DNA of 64,000 nucleotides from Mobula hypostoma (lineage: Eukaryota). A program made the translations under genes and the position numbers. The notes beneath the pieces are model-generated. The model ran no database searches and had not been told where the DNA came from. It saw only the letters and a list, made by a program, of their open reading frames with translations. Of the stretch, positions 1,046 through 9,100 are shown piece by piece. Where the stretch lies: positions 73,968,001 through 74,032,000 of the forward strand of contig NC_086097.1 of assembly GCF_963921235.1 (NCBI RefSeq). Reading direction: 5' to 3'. Position 1 is the first letter of the stretch. Each line of letters starts with the position of its first letter.

Positions 1046-1424
1046 TAAATGTATTTGATGATGTAGCCTCAACTGCTTCCCTGGGCAGATAATTCCACAG
1101 TAATTGATTCACTACTCACTGTGAAGAGTAATATTCAAAGTTCAAAGTAAACTTATTATCAAAGTACATACATGTCCTCATATACAATCTGACAGAGGGT
1201 AATGTCTCAGTGGATGAGACCTCTGGCATGATCTCTTTGAATGCAGCTATGGCATTCTTTCTGATTAGCAATGTGACACCTCATTCTCTTTTACCACCTT
1301 CTCTATCGTGTCTAAAACATAAACATCCTGGAACGCTGAGCTGCCAGTTCTGTCGCTCTGATAATCATGCCTGTAATAGTCACAACATCATAGTTCCAAA
1401 CATTGATGCAGGCTGGAATACTCC

Positions 1425-1646
1425 TGTTGTGTATGTGGCCTGGCTACACAACAATGCAATTAATAAAAACGCTGGAGACGGGAGCTAAGGTTCATGGTTC
1501 TTTACTGGCAGAAACCGAACTTGGCACATATGTACAGATCAATACGCACCTAATAGCAAATGCTCAATATGCGCCTAATAACGCATTCAACGACATGTTA
1601 CTAAAACATAAAGTAGTCCCTTGTATACTGTAGGTTATACGGTATA
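1425..1646 (-). repeat. 3' LTR
   Basis: Aligns end to end with 5951-6173 (about 27 substitutions plus 1 indel by hand, ~88% identity). TG...CA termini can be reconstructed from the two copies. Confidence 0.95.
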
Positions 1647-1660
1647 CTCCTCACCTTTTA
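1647..1660 (-). other. Polypurine tract
   Basis: Minus-strand TAAAAGGTGAGGAG directly abuts the 3' LTR. Confidence 0.85.
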
Positions 1661-1829
1661 TTTTAGTAGTGGATCAACTGGAGCACTATGCTAAACAAAT
1701 ATGTTTACCCTCAACATACAAACACCTACTATTTGTTTACTTAGTAACTTAATATCAAATAAGAACAAAGTAACATAATAATATCAAATTATAACAAGCC
1801 TTTTTTTTAACTTCTGGTCTAAGACCCAC

Positions 1830-1886
1830 TTATAACTCAAGTCTCTGGGGGGGGGGTCTTCTCTGCCTCTCCGGGTAACGTCTGTC
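1830..1886 (-). pseudogene. Extreme C-terminal remnant of Gypsy pol/integrase
   Basis: Encodes DRRYPERQRRPPPQRLEL*, the RRYP.R.R.PP.RL motif typical of Gypsy pol C-termini. Confidence 0.75.
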
Positions 1887-1990
1887 AATAAACCTATTTG
1901 TTTTAATACAGATTTCCATATAAAAGTCATGAAAAGTTGACCTCTGAGGATAGGGAGTTAAGAAGATGTGTACCTCCAACTTTAAGAGTT

Positions 1991-4397
1991 CTAGGCAGCA
2001 GATCGCCTCCGTATAATGAAGCCTCCTCTGTGCAGCTGTCCTTGACATATACGCATCTTTGTGCTATCACTTGTCTTCCTTACCCATATCTCATTTGTTC
2101 CAGCTGAGCTAATTATACAGCTAATCTTCATATTCTCCTTAGATTCCAAATAGATAGCTTGACCTTTATGATACCATCTCTTATTGTAATATAATTTTCC
2201 ATCTTCTATTCGTGCTTCATATCCTTGTGCTGGTGATTCAGCAGGAGTGCTGGGAAGATGCTCAAGAGAAGACGGAGATGCTGGTCTTTTCGGAGATTTA
2301 AGCTTATTGAGAGTTCGCAAAACTTCAATTATCTGTTCATCTGTTAACAAGTAATTTAACTGTGCAGGTTTTCGTCTTTTGTCTGTAATTGGAACAGGGT
2401 CATTAGGTCTCCTCCTTAGTTTTCTAGTTATTATTGGCATTACCTCCATAGACTCTCCTGTGAGTTCCATTGTTAGCCTCTCATTCTCAATCATCTTTTT
2501 CTTTTCTTCTAACTCAATCCTTTTATCTTCAAATTCCTTCACTGCTGCTTTCATCTCTTTAATATAATTCCTTTCCATTTGTTCTGTCTCCAGTTGCAGA
2601 AAAACCTCTACATTTCATATTCTTTCCCTGTATTGTTGATCTAGTTTCTTCATCCTTTTCTGATACTCCTGCAAAGTGCCTTCCTGTAACTGTTGTAGCT
2701 GTCTTTTGAGAGATGTCAATTTCTCCTGGTACATCTGCTCTTTTACTTAGAAGTAGTTTTCATCATCCTGCTTATTGGCAATATCTGTCTCCCTTGCATC
2801 CTTTGTATCTTCATCCAAGTCACGGCCATGGATACAGGTTTCCCCTGCCATCCGAAGGTACAGCGTTCCTATGAAACAGTTCGTAAGCCGAAATGTCGTA
2901 AAGCGAAGAAGCAATTACCATTTATTTATATGGGAAAATCTTGTGAGCGTTCGCAGACCCAAAAATAACCTACCAAATCTTGCCAAATAACACATCAAAC
3001 TTAAAATAACAGTAACATACAGTAAAAGCAGGAATAATATGATAAATACACAGCCTATATAAAGTAGAAATACTTTTCCACAATCATTACTGAACTGTTC
3101 TCCGGAGCGAAAATCTCACGCGTGCCGTCGACAGAAAATCTCACGCAAGCGCTGTTGGCAAAAACATACGCTAGCGCTCTCCAGTAATCTTTAAACTATG
3201 AAGCTGCCAAATCATACTAAATAACACGTTAAAATACACAGCTGATATAAAATAGAAATAATGTATGTACAGTGTAGTATCACTTACGGGAATCGGGACA
3301 GCGCCGAGCACACTGATGATGGTGTGTTAGACTGAGTCGTCGGTGTTTGGGTGGTGCAGTGGCCCCCCCACCCTCCAGGCCGCTGAGCGATACATTGCCG
3401 TGAAGAACACAGGGGTCCAGCAGTAGCCGGGAGGTACACAGCATATCTTTAAGAAAAAAGCCGAAACAAACATGCTAATTAATTAGGTGCCGCCCATAAT
3501 TGTCGGCCCAGATCAGTGCCGATTTCCATTTGCATTCTCCGCAAATTGGTATCTGTCCGTGGCCTGGGGGTTGGGGTGGTGGGACACTGGGGTGTCATCT
3601 CGTCGCCTGCTTCCATTAGAGCAGGCAGCTCATCTTGACTGCCTGCCTCGATGTCGAAGGTCGAGGTTCGTCGTCTGCTGTGGCTGATGTGGAAGGCTTG
3701 CTTGACTGCTGAGCCTCGCGTATTTTTCTATCACACAGTTCTTTAATAAGGACTCAAACCATCCTGCAAATCTCCCCTAAACCAACGTACCCTTTCAAAA
3801 TTAAAGTCGTACTTTATCATTACTCATTCGGTTTCGATTGTTATCCTTTTTTCTTTCAATTGCATCAGCTCTTCATCTGTCAGTTCTTGGGGATGGGATG
3901 CCAAAACCTCTTCAACATCATCTTCGTCAGCTTCCACAAGCCAAACTCATGTTGTCCTTACTTCGTTCACCAGATCAAAACGCTTAATTATGTTTAGTTT
4001 TATCGTAAGTGTGACACCCTTACAAGCTCTTTCAGGCTTTTCCGATACCATAGAATTCATCCTGCAAACGGCTGCTCACAGGCCCGTGTTTAAGCAATGC
4101 TGGCGAGAATCCGGGGGAGAGCGGCTGCTCGGAGCGTGCTGCCTTTTATCACGCGCTGATTTTTTTTGTGCACTGATTTTTTATCGCGCGCTGAATTTTT
4201 TTTCGTCACAGTGAAAACACCTTCTGAAAGCGAAAATAGGGTACTAATGTAGGTCTTTTGTAACAGTGAGGTTTCGTAAAGCGAATGTTCGAAAAGCGGG
4301 GGACACCTGTATTGCGTTCATCCTCATCGCTGACGGTGTCTAGCTCCTCCTCGATGTTGTAATAGTCGGCAATGGGTGAGAGAAGAGCTGTGTGCAT
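1991..4397 (-). pseudogene. SUDS3: Processed (intronless) SUDS3/SDS3 retrocopy, split by a Tigger at 2835-4309
   Basis: With the Tigger and one TA removed it reads MHTALLSPIADYYNIEEELDTVSDEDERNIHGRDLDEDTKDARETD...[38 protein letters not shown]...[11 protein letters not shown]...[13 protein letters not shown]...IRRRSAA*, matching vertebrate SUDS3 from start to stop. In-frame stops at 2747-2749 and 2615-2617. Confidence 0.95.
2835..4309 (-). mobile_element. Internally deleted Tigger/pogo-like DNA transposon
   Basis: TA duplication (2833-2834, 4310-4311); imperfect TIRs CAGGTTTCCCCTGCCATCCGAA and (revcomp) CAGGTGTCCCCCGCTTTTCGAA; from ATG 4051 a psq-type HTH start (KGVTLTIKLNIIKRFD) joined to an acidic C-terminus (EDDVEEVLASHPQELTDEEL); DDE core absent. 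Confidence 0.9.
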
Positions 4398-4419
4398 CTT
4401 GCCCGCCGAGCAACACTCC

Positions 4420-5575
4420 TTTGTTGACACATCTAGTGCCTTGACTGTGTGCCAATCCAACTGGATTTTCCTGAGCCATTCACATCCCATTTTTCAGTAC
4501 ATTGAGGTTAAGCTGCTGTGTTTTGTCTCTGTAGGTCACTGTCTCTTTAATTTTGCCTTTGGGACGCACTTTCTGTCCTGTGTAAGTCTTTAGTAGAAGT
4601 TTAGTTCGTTTCAGAGGTATGTGTAAAAATAGTCATTTGTAGTCATGTACAGAGATCACTGTTAAAGCTGAGCCTGTGTCCAACTCCATTTTCAGTCTCA
4701 CGCCTGCCACTTGTGGAGTGATCCTTATTACTCTTCGATCATCTGTCTCTTTCACGCTGTGAAGTTGCAGACAAGACAATTCACTTTCATCTGAGTCGTT
4801 TTCATCAGAACTACTTTCTTCCATTTTGTGCACATTGTTGTGTTTTTCTTTCTGGGGTTTCTTGTTTCTCTGTATTTTGTCCTTTTTCTGCTGTTTACTA
4901 GCTTTGCATACTCTGCCAATGTGGCCCTGTTTGCCAGTTTCTGCATTCTTTGTCTTTAAACCAACAGTCCTCAGGGTCATGTGACATGTCCCCACAACGG
5001 TAACATTTCTTTCCTTCATTTCTATTCAGTGACATTTTATTTGTAGCATATTCCAGAGATTTTTGTTGTATCTCTGAAGCACCCCGTGCTGCTATTTCCC
5101 ATGATATTGCAATGATCAGCACTTTCTCAAATGTAAGGTCTCTTTCACACAGAAGCTTCTTCTGTGTGGTTTCACAGTGCATGCCACACACTAACCTGTC
5201 CCTCAATGCGTCCGACAGACCAGCTCTAAATTGACAATGTTCTGATAATTTGCGCAATTCAGCACAAATTTCAGAAATGCTTTCATTTTTGCTCTGATTC
5301 CGATTGTGAAATTTAAATCTTTCAGCAATGACCAGTGGTTTGGTGTTTAAATGCTGTTGGAGAGTGTCTACTATTTGCTTGAACTTATTGTTTTCAGGAG
5401 TTAACAAACTCTGTAGCACGCTGTATGTTTTTGCTCCCATAACACTGTGTAAGACACTGGCTTTCTTTTCATCATTAACATCATTAGCATCACAATATAA
5501 CTCCACTCTTTCAATGTAAATTGCCCAGTCTTCAATGCCACTATCAAATGCTGTAATGGTTCTAATCATCGCCAT
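4420..5575 (-). pseudogene. Gypsy gag and aspartic protease, degenerate
   Basis: Gag 4898-5575 (FDSGIEDW..YIER; LRDRLVCG; CCHC knuckle CYRCGDMSHDPEDC plus a frameshifted second knuckle KQGHIGRVC); protease LDTGSA, then LKTYTG and G.EWLRKIQLDW; stops and frameshifts. Confidence 0.9.
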
Positions 5576-5937
5576 CTTTGTTATGTTAATTTAGCCCCGT
5601 TTTCCCCTTGTTTTCTTTTTGACTCACATGTCCTTTTTGCTAGCGCCACAAGCACACTCCGTCTAGATGCATGTGTCGTTCCTTTTTATCTCCCTTCTGG
5701 GCAGGCAGACCCTCAGCCCCTGGGGGTCAGCACTGGCTGTGGTCTCTCCTGGATGTGCTGCGGTTGTGTCTCTTGGTCTCCTGATGTTCCCAACTCCGGC
5801 TGTGCTCCTGCTTCCTTTCGGACTCGTGGCCTTGCTCTGACTCCTTCTCCCGCTCCTCGGCTTGTTCCTTGCGCTCTTCCTCCGAGTGTCGTTATCAACT
5901 AAAACCCAGCGTTCCGATAAGCTGTAGGTTCATTAAT

Positions 5938-5947
5938 CTCGTCGCCA
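5938..5947 (-). promoter_or_regulatory. Primer-binding site, tRNA-Ser(GCU)-type
   Basis: Minus-strand TGGCGACGAG lies 3 nt inside the 5' LTR. It is complementary to a tRNA 3' end ...CUCGUCGCCA. Confidence 0.8.
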
Positions 5948-5950
5948 ATT

Positions 5951-6173
5951 TATTGTGTATGTAGCCTGGCTCCACACCAATGCAATTAATAAAAGTGCTG
6001 GAGACGGGAGCTAAGGTTCATGGTTCTTTACTTTCAGAAACCAGAATCGGCACACACGTACAGATCAATACACACCTAATAGCGCATGCTCAATATGCAC
6101 TTAATAGCGCATTCAATGACGTGTTACTAAAACATAAATTAGTCCCTTATTATACTGTAGGCTAAACGGTACA
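5951..6173 (-). repeat. 5' LTR
   Basis: Direct repeat of 1425-1646; followed by the TSD ACTCC. Confidence 0.95.
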
Positions 6174-9100
6174 ACTCCTTACATTAAAATAAACACACTT
6201 CATAATAAGGGGACGAAAACTGTACATTGTATTCCAGCTGTGGTCCTACCAACATCCTGTGCAAATGAAACAAAATATCAATAATACACCGTGTGCAGGA
6301 AAATATTAGGTCCATTTTAACAAAAGATCGTAACAGGGTACCTGGAACATGGCCATATGATCAGATAAAGTCAACACAGTTTTATGTCAGGAAATGCAGT
6401 AAAGCATTAGATTCTGATAACTCAATAGATATTTTAAGGATTCTACTTTGTGGTAAATAAGCAGGGTAGCAGTGAAAATAGCTACCTATCTATATAGATT
6501 TTCAAAAGGTATGTGGCAAAATTTTAAATAAATGTTGACGAAGGTTCTGAGGTTGAGTTCATATTTTTGCATGGGTAGAGAAATGATTGAAAGACTAAAA
6601 CAAAACATTACAAGGATTATTTTCAGGTTGGTAGACTAACAAAATGTCATTGGGTTTAGTCTGGGACCTCAGGTACACACAACTGAAATTCATATCACAT
6701 TCAGGTTTTCTGCTGATCCAAAGTCAGGTGGTAAAGTGAGCTGCATGTAGGATGCAAACAATTTGTAAATATGTCAAGCAAGTAGATGAGAGATGTGAGT
6801 ATAATGTGAGAAAATATGAAGCTGGGCATTTGATAGAAAGAATAAATTATTAGTGTATTTTTAAATGGCAAGAAATGCTAAATGTTGGTGTAAATGGAGA
6901 AATTGCAGCAACCACTCATAACACTGACTCTGAGAAGGCATCTAAGGCAGGTTTACATTTGTGATCCTACTGGAAGCAGCACATCAATGTTTCCATTTCT
7001 ACATTCTATTGCTGAAGGACAATGCTTGGATTTTTAGTACAGTGAGCTGCAGGACTGATTTGAAAATATAAACATAGTGGCTCTAATTTTATATCAATCA
7101 TAGAAACTACTCAACCGTGAAGCAAACCTTGAAGTGCATTTATGACCAGTTACAGAAAATAATTGGCATACAATAAACCCAAGAGAAATTCCATACATGA
7201 GGCTGAAACTAATTGGGGAAGTACACAGATTCTTAATTGCCCTTTCAATTAATACAGAAAATTAGCCTGCATAGAAAGGCAACAATTAAAGATTTTTGAT
7301 AGCTTGGGTTTATAGTTGTAATGTAAATCATACTTCATAAATTTGAAACTAAGTCACATTTACATCTTTCTATACCATTCTCATGCCAGTCTGAACATCA
7401 GAAACATGTCTCTTTGATTTTATGGTATGTTCAGATGATAGGGTGGTGTAAACATTCGGTAAGATTAATTCTATTCAGCTCGTTTTTTACTAAGTACCAC
7501 TCCAGAATGCAGAAAACTCTGCAAACTGAAGGTTCATCCTAGATATATAAGGTTTCCATTCTTGACAACCATCCATAAGCTTCATTTCTTTGACTTTCTG
7601 TAGCTACCAAAATCATTTTGCTCCAAATACACTTGCTACAATTCTTCCGTTCCATTTAATAATCATCCAAGTGCTACCATAATTAATCTATGAATACCAT
7701 GAAACATTTTCTTATTATTGTAATTATTATCAGCCTGAAAACTGCTTTAAACATCTATGGGAGAATTTGTGTGAAGTCAGGACATTTGTAACTAAGGAAG
7801 TCCCTGTGGGCAGCTCAGAACCTCCTCTTTGAAGAGAATTAAGCTCAAAAACAAGGGAATTTGCAATTCTTACCTGTTCTAGCCTGCATGCAACTCCATG
7901 TCCACCTGTCCTAACCTGCTTTCTCAGTACAGGGACAATAATGTGCAGAAAATAAATGCTTATACGGCTGGTCAGAAAAATCAAACAAAAACACACAACA
8001 TACATCTTCAACAACTCAAATATTTTTATGAACAATTTTTTTCACTGCAAGACTTTTTAATGCATTTTCTGATTCAGATTAACTAGGATGGGTGACATTT
8101 CAACCGAGAAACTTTGATCCTAGTTGCACCCTGGTAACTATCCGGTGTGTACAATTAATTATGCGTGCTAACAAAATATTGTAAAGATATTTTTATCGTC
8201 TGGATGTATGTAGCATTGGGACATAGACCTCTATTCCAAAGACCATCTTCAGTCCCAAAATATGGTCAAAATCAATAATCTTTTAGAAGTGAATTAGGAT
8301 CAAATTATTAGCAACATTTTTTAAAGGTTCAATCATCTTCTGGGGTGAGTGAAGTTTTGCATAAATGCAAATAAGGCACTCTTCATTTCTATGGAAGATT
8401 TTTCATTTTGTCTAACCAAATTATTGAAAATTAACAAGCTGAATTACAGAACATGGGGAGGTATTATTTCAAAAATACAGTAGGGATGCATAATTGGCAT
8501 TTTTTATCCGGTCCACTGCAACTTTAATTATCTAGAAGAGTTAGGCCACTTGTAAAATTCAAAAGTATGAATTAATAAAGGTAGATAAGCTTTAACTATT
8601 CTATACCTATTTGATGACTGCAAAATTGCAAATAAGTAATGTTATCTGATCACATAAATGGCTTTGGAAGAAATTACATTCCACTTTCAGTGTCATGTAA
8701 ATGTGTTTAGGTCCCCAGTTGTGTTGCTGCATTCAGTTTCCAGGCAACTTTCTGGCAGTGATGACAGTGGCATTAATCACCAAGCTGTGTATTGCAGAAG
8801 GATTAGAATTGATTACATTTGTTTGAGATTTATTGATTTTGAAAAGTATTGTTAATTGGGTAATAATGATTGAGTCTTCAAAGTGCAAGTGCATTCTAAT
8901 TAGCTGAAAGGTCAATTATCAACTAACTTTATGTTTTAGTGCAATGGAAAATGCCTGATTCAACTATGCTTTTAATAATTATAGAATATCATAAAGTACT
9001 CAGCTTCAAAAGGTGAACCTACATCAATTCTCACATTGCAGCGAAGTAGTTTGCAGCTTGCAGCTTGCAAAATGATTGTAATGTAATATAATAGTGAAAG

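Follow-up and report, generated by a model that had tools for sequence, protein, structure and literature searches.

The window analysed here is a stretch of 64,000 nucleotides from the cartilaginous fish Mobula hypostoma (assembly GCF_963921235.1, contig NC_086097.1, positions 73,968,001 to 74,032,000). At positions 1420-6178, on the minus strand, it contains a long terminal repeat (LTR) retrotransposon in which most of pol is replaced by a copy of the host gene SUDS3, which codes for a chromatin repressor. We hold with high confidence that this copy is a decayed member of a non-autonomous Gypsy-type family, born from one template-switch capture of a spliced SUDS3 mRNA and amplified in trans. 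The chimera recurs at hundreds of loci, with the same 5' breakpoint and with host exons joined as in the mature message.

Read on the minus strand, the element has the order target-site duplication (TSD), LTR, primer-binding site (PBS), gag, protease, a 12-nt SUDS3 leader, the SUDS3 coding sequence, 111 nt of SUDS3 3' untranslated region (UTR), a pol tail, polypurine tract (PPT), LTR and TSD. The initial annotation, made from the letters of the window, had proposed this order. Every part was present at the coordinates checked, and the positions estimated for the two element/SUDS3 junctions proved correct. The parts are listed below in coordinates of the whole window, in element order; ORF stands for open reading frame, and L numbers designate copies and relatives at other loci, described further on.

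6174-6178, minus strand: TSD GGAGT, upstream side, identical to 1420-1424; a TSD of 5 bp is the rule of the family
5951-6173, minus strand: 5' LTR of 223 bp, TGTACC...ACACAATA, 87.8% identical to the 3' LTR
5937-5947, minus strand: PBS TGGCGACGAGA, beginning 3 nt past the 5' LTR; TGGCGACGAGG in most copies
4703-5575 (3' limit approximate), minus strand: gag, with ATG at 5575 and a CCHC knuckle, broken by frameshift; ORF 4898-5590
4417-4702 (5' limit approximate), minus strand: protease, LDTGSA ... EWLRKIQLDW, from ORF reading, with a private 19-bp deletion and a stop
4410-4416, minus strand: 5' breakpoint microhomology, here mutated to GTGTTGC; most copies, the pol-bearing relatives and the host 5' UTR have GGGCAGC
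4398-4409, minus strand: SUDS3 5' UTR leader, 12 nt, GC-rich, TCGGCGGGCAAG, in frame with protease
4310-4397, minus strand: SUDS3 coding sequence, first part, MHTALLSPIADYYNIEEELDTVSDEDERN, ATG at 4397-4395, matching host exon 1
2835-4309, no strand assigned: later insertion, a non-autonomous DNA transposon of 1,475 bp with 25-nt inverted ends (80% complementary) and a TA duplication at 4310-4311 / 2833-2834
1991-2834, minus strand: SUDS3 coding sequence, second part, with TAG stop at 1993-1991, in-frame stops at 2749-2747 and 2617-2615, and lacking 24 bp of a host exon
1887-1990, minus strand: SUDS3 3' UTR, type A short form, collinear with the host last exon
1880-1886, minus strand: 3' breakpoint microhomology GACAGAC, common to host 3' UTR and pol
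1830-1879 (50 nt), minus strand: pol tail, the last 16 codons (integrase end), ..RRYPERQRRPPPQRLEL, and stop, aligning with the pol end of L041, L043 and L044
1647-1664, minus strand: PPT AAAATAAAAGGTGAGGAG, conserved across other copies
1425-1646, minus strand: 3' LTR of 222 bp, from pairwise comparison with the 5' LTR
1420-1424, minus strand: TSD GGAGT, downstream side, matching 6174-6178

The two LTRs differ at 27 of 222 aligned positions. They start with TGTACC and TATACC and end with ACAATA and ACAACA, that is, they are of the TG..CA type. The PBS is presumably complementary to the 3' end of tRNA-Ser. The gag region is 85-89% identical to gag in other copies and in pol-bearing relatives; its Pfam matches are weak (DUF7083, PNMA). 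The protease region of copy L040 matches Pfam gag-asp_proteas with E=3.7e-05, which is below the curated cut-off. The C-terminal end of the protease reads ...EWLRKIQLDWHTVKALDVSTKE, followed in the same frame by CCSAGK and then by MHTALLSPIADYYN..., the start of SUDS3. The element/SUDS3 junction lies at 4410/4409, the host 3' UTR extends to 1880, and a spacer separates the pol tail stop from the PPT. Both gag and protease are broken in the window copy.

The nature of the parental element is indicated by four relatives, L042-L045, that carry gag, protease, reverse transcriptase (RT), RNase H and integrase (Pfam RVT_1, 9.2e-23; RT_RNaseH_2, 4.3e-36; rve_3, 5.5e-07). In L045, matches to gag-asp_proteas, RVT_1, RT_RNaseH_2 and rve_3 give the order gag-protease-RT-RNase H-integrase. 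This element is about 4.9 kb long and its pol reaches to about 200 nt of the 3' LTR; there is therefore no room for env. The nearest named database relative is 'K02A2.6-like', and a 1-kb pol probe yielded 1,295 first-look candidates in the genome. LTRs with TG..CA ends, a PBS past the 5' LTR, a PPT before the 3' LTR, a short TSD and the gene order are all hallmarks of Ty3/Gypsy. Gene order, Pfam domains and cis signals thus assign the element to the non-autonomous LTR retrotransposons of Ty3/Gypsy type. None of nine annotated Gag-protease relatives retrieved in a length window of 266-849 aa carries SUDS3. Another non-autonomous derivative, L041 (C64:33,467,725-33,470,540), is 2.8 kb long, lacks an internal stretch reaching from early RT into late integrase and holds no host cargo.

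The cargo is identified as SUDS3 by protein similarity. Its C-terminal 207-residue frame retrieved SDS3 chains from the PDB using phmmer (7sxi, E=1.5e-37; 4zqa, 6.9e-17; 2n2h, 8.3e-07). Database relatives at E<=1e-10 number 775; Pfam Sds3 is present in every one of the 120 listed, and those of the 120 that have a name are SDS3 or SUDS3. The coding sequence had been described as whole and intronless. It does run from start to stop in spliced form, but it is split by the 1,475-bp insert, carries two in-frame stop codons and lacks 24 bp, corresponding to residues LKENLIAE. The window copy is a dead, decayed member of its family. The DNA transposon is missing from all 20 other chimera copies, and at the other 19 loci from a whole-element search the sequence before the insertion site is directly joined to the sequence after it, so that the insertion is private to the window copy. 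The transposon is one of a very abundant family (10,600 first-look candidates genome-wide). Most of its other copies are about 105 bp longer centrally, with a segment of about 100 bp there in the opposite orientation.

The parental gene is located on contig C78, separate from the window, and comprises at least 12 exons spread across some 59 kb, as expected by the initial annotation of a multi-exon parent. Eleven exons were located on the minus strand of C78, from the ATG at 8,439,639 to the last exon at about 8,380,296-8,380,733; the exon for residues 38-62 is not among them. The gene was found with a degenerate pattern for the eight residues (LKENLIAE) that are present in true SDS3 proteins and lacking in the cargo; this pattern has exactly one match in the genome. 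A search with the host SDS3 protein missed this locus because the retrocopies outrank it: the 125 scored matches, all contiguous intronless stretches, do not include it. Host introns are GT-AG, except for one U12-type AT-AC intron that starts with ATATCCTTTT and ends with AC. It sits between the exons coding ...KRRKPAP and AQLNYLL... (C78, about 8,395,850-8,398,960; loci L047/L048). Translation of the joined host exons gives the SDS3 protein P0004 of Mobula birostris, save for nine residues peculiar to P0004. These nine residues (GIDCVFLIA-like) map to the two ends of an intron (loci L047-L048), and the retrocopies show the true exon join.

The cargo joins host exons exactly, including across the AT-AC intron. 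It therefore derives from an mRNA with all introns removed. In the host gene the missing 24 bp fall within a single exon, where the direct repeat GAGTT flanks them. A loss at this position would be compatible with a slip during reverse transcription rather than with alternative splicing. No copy keeps the 24 bp in coding form, since the only match to the degenerate pattern is the host gene.

We then consider the family in the window's own 3.48-Gb assembly. Searching with the whole element returned 104 matches from the best 40 of 13,483 first-look candidates, a total inflated by the DNA transposon. Twenty further copies were fetched with their flanks (L021-L040), giving 21 with the window copy. 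All 20 have the arrangement LTR-gag-protease-SUDS3, so the architecture is not due to chance, and all share the 5' breakpoint of the window copy to the base; L034 additionally lacks the first part of the cargo. When up to 3 mismatches are allowed, a 32-nt sequence across the 5' junction is matched 296 times in the genome, 150 times in forward and 146 times in reverse orientation, as compared with 0 for the reversed control pattern. The window copy itself is too mutated to count among them. A degenerate pattern for the first 12 SUDS3 codons has 103 non-host matches. The cargo DNA yielded 466 first-look candidates and the SDS3 protein 1,707.

The chimera copies are dispersed over many contigs. 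For 20 of them both ends could be compared, L035 showing only one LTR in its stretch. The 5-bp TSD is perfect in 12 of these 20, and all 12 are different; in five others, four of the five positions match. Dispersal with individual TSDs indicates integration rather than segmental duplication, and the recurrence of one junction at loci with different TSDs is what the initial annotation had anticipated for an amplified chimera. Taken together, junctions and TSDs point to one capture in an ancestor, followed by amplification as a family of at least 296 copies. The capture did not occur at the window locus. One of the five copies with an imperfect TSD, L033 (C76:11,185,400-11,190,100), adjoins another element: its 5' LTR immediately follows the PPT and pol tail belonging to another copy, the two forming a tandem pair that shares an LTR. 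In nine copies (L021, L023, L025, L029-L032, L037 and L039) the two LTRs of the same copy differ in length by 11-26 bp, with about 198 versus 223 bp in eight of them. The variable region contains a tandem repeat of about 25 bp, one unit of which seems to have been repeatedly gained or lost.

Comparison with the host mRNA and with the pol-bearing relatives, which had been suggested as a way to map the breakpoints, placed both of them in 7-nt microhomologies, GGGCAGC and GACAGAC. In L042-L045 the similarity to the element extends from the LTR as far as the 5' breakpoint, breaks off there and picks up again at the 3' breakpoint, continuing to the end. At the 5' junction (a slash marks the break) pol reads ...AAAGGAGGGCAGC/AAGACTACATC, the host 5' UTR ...GGGGGCGGGCAGC/TCGGCGGGGAAGATG and the chimera ...AAAGGAGGGCAGC/TCGGCGGGGAAGATG. 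In a shorter rendering, the host reads ...GCGGGCAGC/TCGGCGGGGAAGATG, pol ...GGAGGGCAGC/AAGACT and the chimera ...GGAGGGCAGC/TCGGCGGGGAAGATG. The seven bases GGGCAGC are common to pol and host, and 9 of 10 match over a longer stretch. This breakpoint is within host exon 1, 19 nt before the ATG, and not at a splice site.

The 3' junction exists in two forms. In type A, found in 11 copies (the window copy and L021-L030), 113 nt of host UTR are retained; the host UTR reads ...TTTATTGACAGAC/TGAAG and pol ...CAGGACAGAC/GTTACCCGG (/GTTACC in a shorter rendering), with the seven bases GACAGAC in common. In type B, found in nine copies (L031-L039), 339 nt of host UTR are retained and the pol sequence sets in at a point 24 nt farther downstream (...GGACAATCT/AGAGAAGACC). 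L040 has lost the region of the 3' junction. Type A contains 15 pol bases absent from B, and type B about 225 UTR bases absent from A. A plain deletion would convert neither into the other, which calls for a further template switch. In the simplest reading type B would have come first, and type A would have arisen by a switch from autonomous RNA into type B RNA at GACAGAC. The host UTR runs on beyond both breakpoints. A poly(A) tail or a separate TSD around SUDS3 had been named as observations that would speak against capture by the element; there is no A-run at either form of the 3' junction and no separate TSD around the cargo. Capture by two template switches, as first proposed, is supported, with amendments, among them that the event is ancestral instead of local to the window and that a further 3'-junction lineage exists.

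The founder was an in-frame fusion. Of 21 aligned copies, 19 show no indel from the end of the protease to the start codon of the cargo; the reading is ...LDWHTIKALDVSTKEGSSAGK-MSAALL.... L024 has two extra bases in this interval; L027 and the window copy have deletions earlier in the protease. Open frames cross from gag/protease into SUDS3 in L031 (573 aa), L040 (485 aa), L033 (439 aa) and L023 (321 aa), so that the founder coded for a fusion of Gag-protease with SUDS3. An uninterrupted frame from gag to the SUDS3 stop exists in none of the 21 copies.

As a measure of age, median K between paired LTRs is 0.109 for type A (n=11) and 0.112 for type B (n=8, L040 counted as B). Values range from 0.069 to 0.154 in 18 of the 20 chimera copies measured and from 0.087 to 0.123 in three pol-bearing elements; L029, whose 3' LTR is truncated, gives 0.306. 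In view of these similar values, chimeras and pol-bearing elements were contemporaries. The cargo tree is a star, with a host branch of 0.013, a median terminal branch of 0.036 and only one of 19 internal branches well supported. Substitutions were classed against the host sequence only. Changes common to at least 18 copies comprise 9 synonymous and 2 non-synonymous differences (P to T and S to G). Skate, stingray and chimaera SDS3 proteins keep P and S, so the two replacements arose on the cargo side. We estimate that host drift alone over the terminal-branch time would produce about 6-7 synonymous differences, close to the nine observed. So few shared differences suggest a very short stem between capture and burst. 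The private changes across the 21 copies (99 synonymous, 268 non-synonymous and 18 stops) give a normalised ratio of 0.76, in keeping with about neutral decay of the copies after the burst. We found no evidence for selection on the cargo or for its present expression, and the data lean towards a passenger. The proposed term vector-like is apt for the structure; nothing in these data shows that the SUDS3 cargo did anything.

The family has left traces in annotated proteomes. 'SDS3-like' proteins of 311-344 aa are annotated in two Mobula species (M. birostris P0005 and P0006, 311 aa; M. hypostoma P0003 and P0007). All lack LKENLIAE, all four contain PIT[DE]KR and three of the four contain HKGQ. 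In P0007 the junction peptide ALDVSAKEGSLVGK occurs, and the residues ahead of it match the element leader. Relative to host SDS3, 30-35 residues are changed in the 'SDS3-like' proteins (about 89-90% identity), whereas the true orthologues of stingray, skate and chimaera are 99.7%, 98.8% and 95.9% identical (1, 3 and 12 differences). They look like family copies that chance to be open rather than conserved genes. In the gene model of P0007, 41 residues matching the leader (compare the window ORF 5713-5898, minus strand) are joined to the last protease residues and then to SUDS3. The join resembles a spliced sub-genomic message; the window copy has no GT donor at the corresponding place.

The element has words in common with public runs of eleven coded organisms, but the shares are small (0.08-0.28), and none of the runs is recorded as RNA. 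Contigs of runs X1, X5, X9 and X19, whose RNA nature is a guess, cover the element when compared with copy L036. X5 and X9 contigs that contain the host-only 24 nt diverge into unlike sequence at both breakpoints and are read as spliced host SUDS3 mRNA. The 5' junction is spanned by an X19 contig. Another contig, from X9, appears to carry both the host-only 24 nt and protease sequence, possibly as an assembly chimera. The contigs of these four runs support no claim of element expression.

These data are best accounted for by the following scenario. During reverse transcription in a virus-like particle, the polymerase would first have copied the 3' end of an element RNA. It would then have jumped into the 3' UTR of a co-packaged, fully spliced host SUDS3 mRNA, copied this to 19 nt upstream of the ATG, and returned to the element RNA where the protease region ends. 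In the product, RT, RNase H and integrase are replaced by the SUDS3 coding sequence in frame with Gag-protease, and LTRs, PBS, leader, gag, protease and PPT are kept. The chimera would have been transcribed from its LTR and packaged, reverse transcribed and integrated by enzymes from the pol-bearing relatives, which are still recognisable in the genome. A short burst led to hundreds of copies. A second switch, most likely between long-UTR chimera RNA and autonomous RNA, would account for the short-UTR subfamily that includes the window copy. The latter decayed after insertion and took up the DNA transposon.

Several observations weigh against this scenario or limit it. Co-packaging and mobilisation in trans are read from structure, not from observation. 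The ORF fragments of the window copy gave no Pfam match to Sds3, gag or protease at E<=0.1. The first-look candidate counts (466 to 1,707) are not true copy numbers. Three of the 20 copies with both ends, including L029 with its truncated LTR, have no recognisable TSD. With only 0-3 nt of shared sequence at the type B junction, microhomology did not guide every switch. Types A and B are intermixed in the cargo tree, requiring 8 changes as compared with a shuffled mean of 7.3. Finally, both types share one 5' junction, and one 5' with two 3' junctions is also what read-through would predict. In that model, of the Swain-Coffin type, an element upstream of or within SUDS3 gave a fused transcript that set the 5' junction, and only the 3' junction arose by template switching, the two 3' forms being expected if one chimeric transcript recombined twice. 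However, the 5' breakpoint lies inside exon 1, not at a splice site but within a 7-nt (9/10) match to pol, and no element remnant is present in the 400 nt upstream of the host ATG, a short stretch. We consider read-through very improbable. Still less credible is a succession of two unrelated events, in which a pol-deleted element later received a processed SUDS3 pseudogene made by a long interspersed nuclear element (LINE). SUDS3 is ranked among the five commonest retrocopy parents in cartilaginous fishes by a preprint (10.64898/2026.06.26.734816), and retrocopies are generally ascribed there to non-LTR elements. But the cargo ends within the 3' UTR without poly(A) while the host UTR continues, no TSD surrounds it, microhomology is present at both of its ends, and pol is replaced exactly by the cargo, not interrupted. 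The 20 further copies all have element flanks, and the 125 protein matches, none of them the C78 locus, are likewise contiguous and intronless. Judging by these sequence features, the LINE reading is already contradicted.

The status of the cargo can also be questioned. Some copies could be domesticated SUDS3-like retrogenes, or the fusion could have been selected as helpful to the element. The cargo is complete and in frame, four of the 125 scored SDS3-protein matches are full length without stops, annotated 'SDS3-like' proteins with family marks occur in two Mobula species, and the copy number rivals that of the pol-bearing relatives. Pairwise dN/dS between cargo and host is 0.19-0.56 (0.36 pooled), which taken alone could suggest constraint and so counts against a mere passenger. 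Yet the pooled value is poor evidence of selection, because the private substitutions are near neutral and the near-fixed differences are about those expected from host drift. With hundreds of copies, chance alone would leave a few frames intact, the 'SDS3-like' proteins fall well below the true orthologues in identity to host SDS3, and the star tree leaves nearly no internal branches on which selection could be seen. An active role of this kind appears highly unlikely. A bolder idea, to which we give a little more room while still regarding it as unlikely, is that the Gag-protease-SUDS3 fusion, with its 8-residue deletion in the SDS3 dimerisation helix and its P to T and S to G replacements, interfered with or hijacked SIN3/HDAC silencing in the germ line and so enabled the burst. 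If true, the chimera would be a retrotransposon armed with a host chromatin regulator, at a copy number comparable to that of its autonomous partner.

The family bears on retrocopy surveys. The discussion of top retrocopy parents in the above preprint invokes germ-line expression and LINE activity, with no Gypsy explanation for SUDS3. The SUDS3 copies in this genome descend from a single capture on a Gypsy-type element, not from repeated mRNA retroposition. SLU7, also on the preprint's list of top parents, was rejected as an amplified gene here: it is a single multi-exon gene with five exon matches (C21:67,570,344-67,576,725). We found no published description of a SUDS3-carrying Gypsy family in the literature. 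The family would explain the 'SDS3-like' gene models in annotated Mobula genomes. One genome preserves the parental gene, both breakpoints, a second recombinant lineage, the putative helpers and hundreds of progeny, making this an unusually clean case of LTR-mediated gene transduction in a vertebrate.

Acutely transforming retroviruses with gag-onc fusions offer a first comparison. They are replication-defective and helper-dependent, have pol replaced by a spliced host cDNA as a Gag fusion, and are formed by recombination during reverse transcription. They are exogenous, bear env, and are selected in somatic tumours, not amplified in the germ line. The SUDS3 family likewise has pol replaced by a spliced host cDNA fused to Gag and would need a helper. 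It differs in having no room for env, in its spread in the germ line and within the genome, and in a 5' breakpoint located inside an exon. With a relative of about 4.9 kb that leaves no space for env, and a 5' breakpoint that is not at a splice site, we do not place the family in this class. Nor does it belong with LINE-mediated processed pseudogenes, as there is neither poly(A) nor a 7-20-bp TSD flanking the cDNA.

Among LTR elements, the mouse pairs ETn/MusD and MaLR/MERVL, named in Tan et al. 2016 (Genome Res, PMC5131818), represent non-autonomous forms with gag but without pol. As in the SUDS3 family, these share LTRs and cis signals with an autonomous partner, which they often outnumber; they carry no complete host gene. 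In maize Bs1, also treated in that paper, the interior of an LTR retrotransposon similarly holds host gene sequence. Bs1 contains fragments of three genes, with shared switch points, at 1-5 copies per Zea genome, whereas the SUDS3 family has one whole coding sequence in hundreds of copies.

The closest likeness is to the LTR-mediated retrocopies that Tan et al. set out in fly, mosquito, zebrafish, chicken and mammals. Template switching at these is microsimilarity-dependent (25 of 29 junctions, median 6 bp), and the retrocopies may be retroposed again as non-autonomous elements. In both cases an intronless host mRNA replaces the element interior with microsimilarity at the junctions (6 as compared with 7 and 7 here), without poly(A) and, for many of the retrocopies, in frame. 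The SUDS3 family shows an intronless cargo, the same element on both sides, microsimilarity, an LTR-type TSD without poly(A) and secondary retroposition. The cases set out in that paper are mostly partial mRNAs at one or few sites. The family described here has a complete in-frame coding sequence, at least 296 junction loci, a cartilaginous fish as host and two 3' lineages. The mechanism is thus already known from Tan et al. 2016; relative to the cases described there, the novelty lies in the copy number in the hundreds, in a complete cargo kept in frame and in the host taxon.

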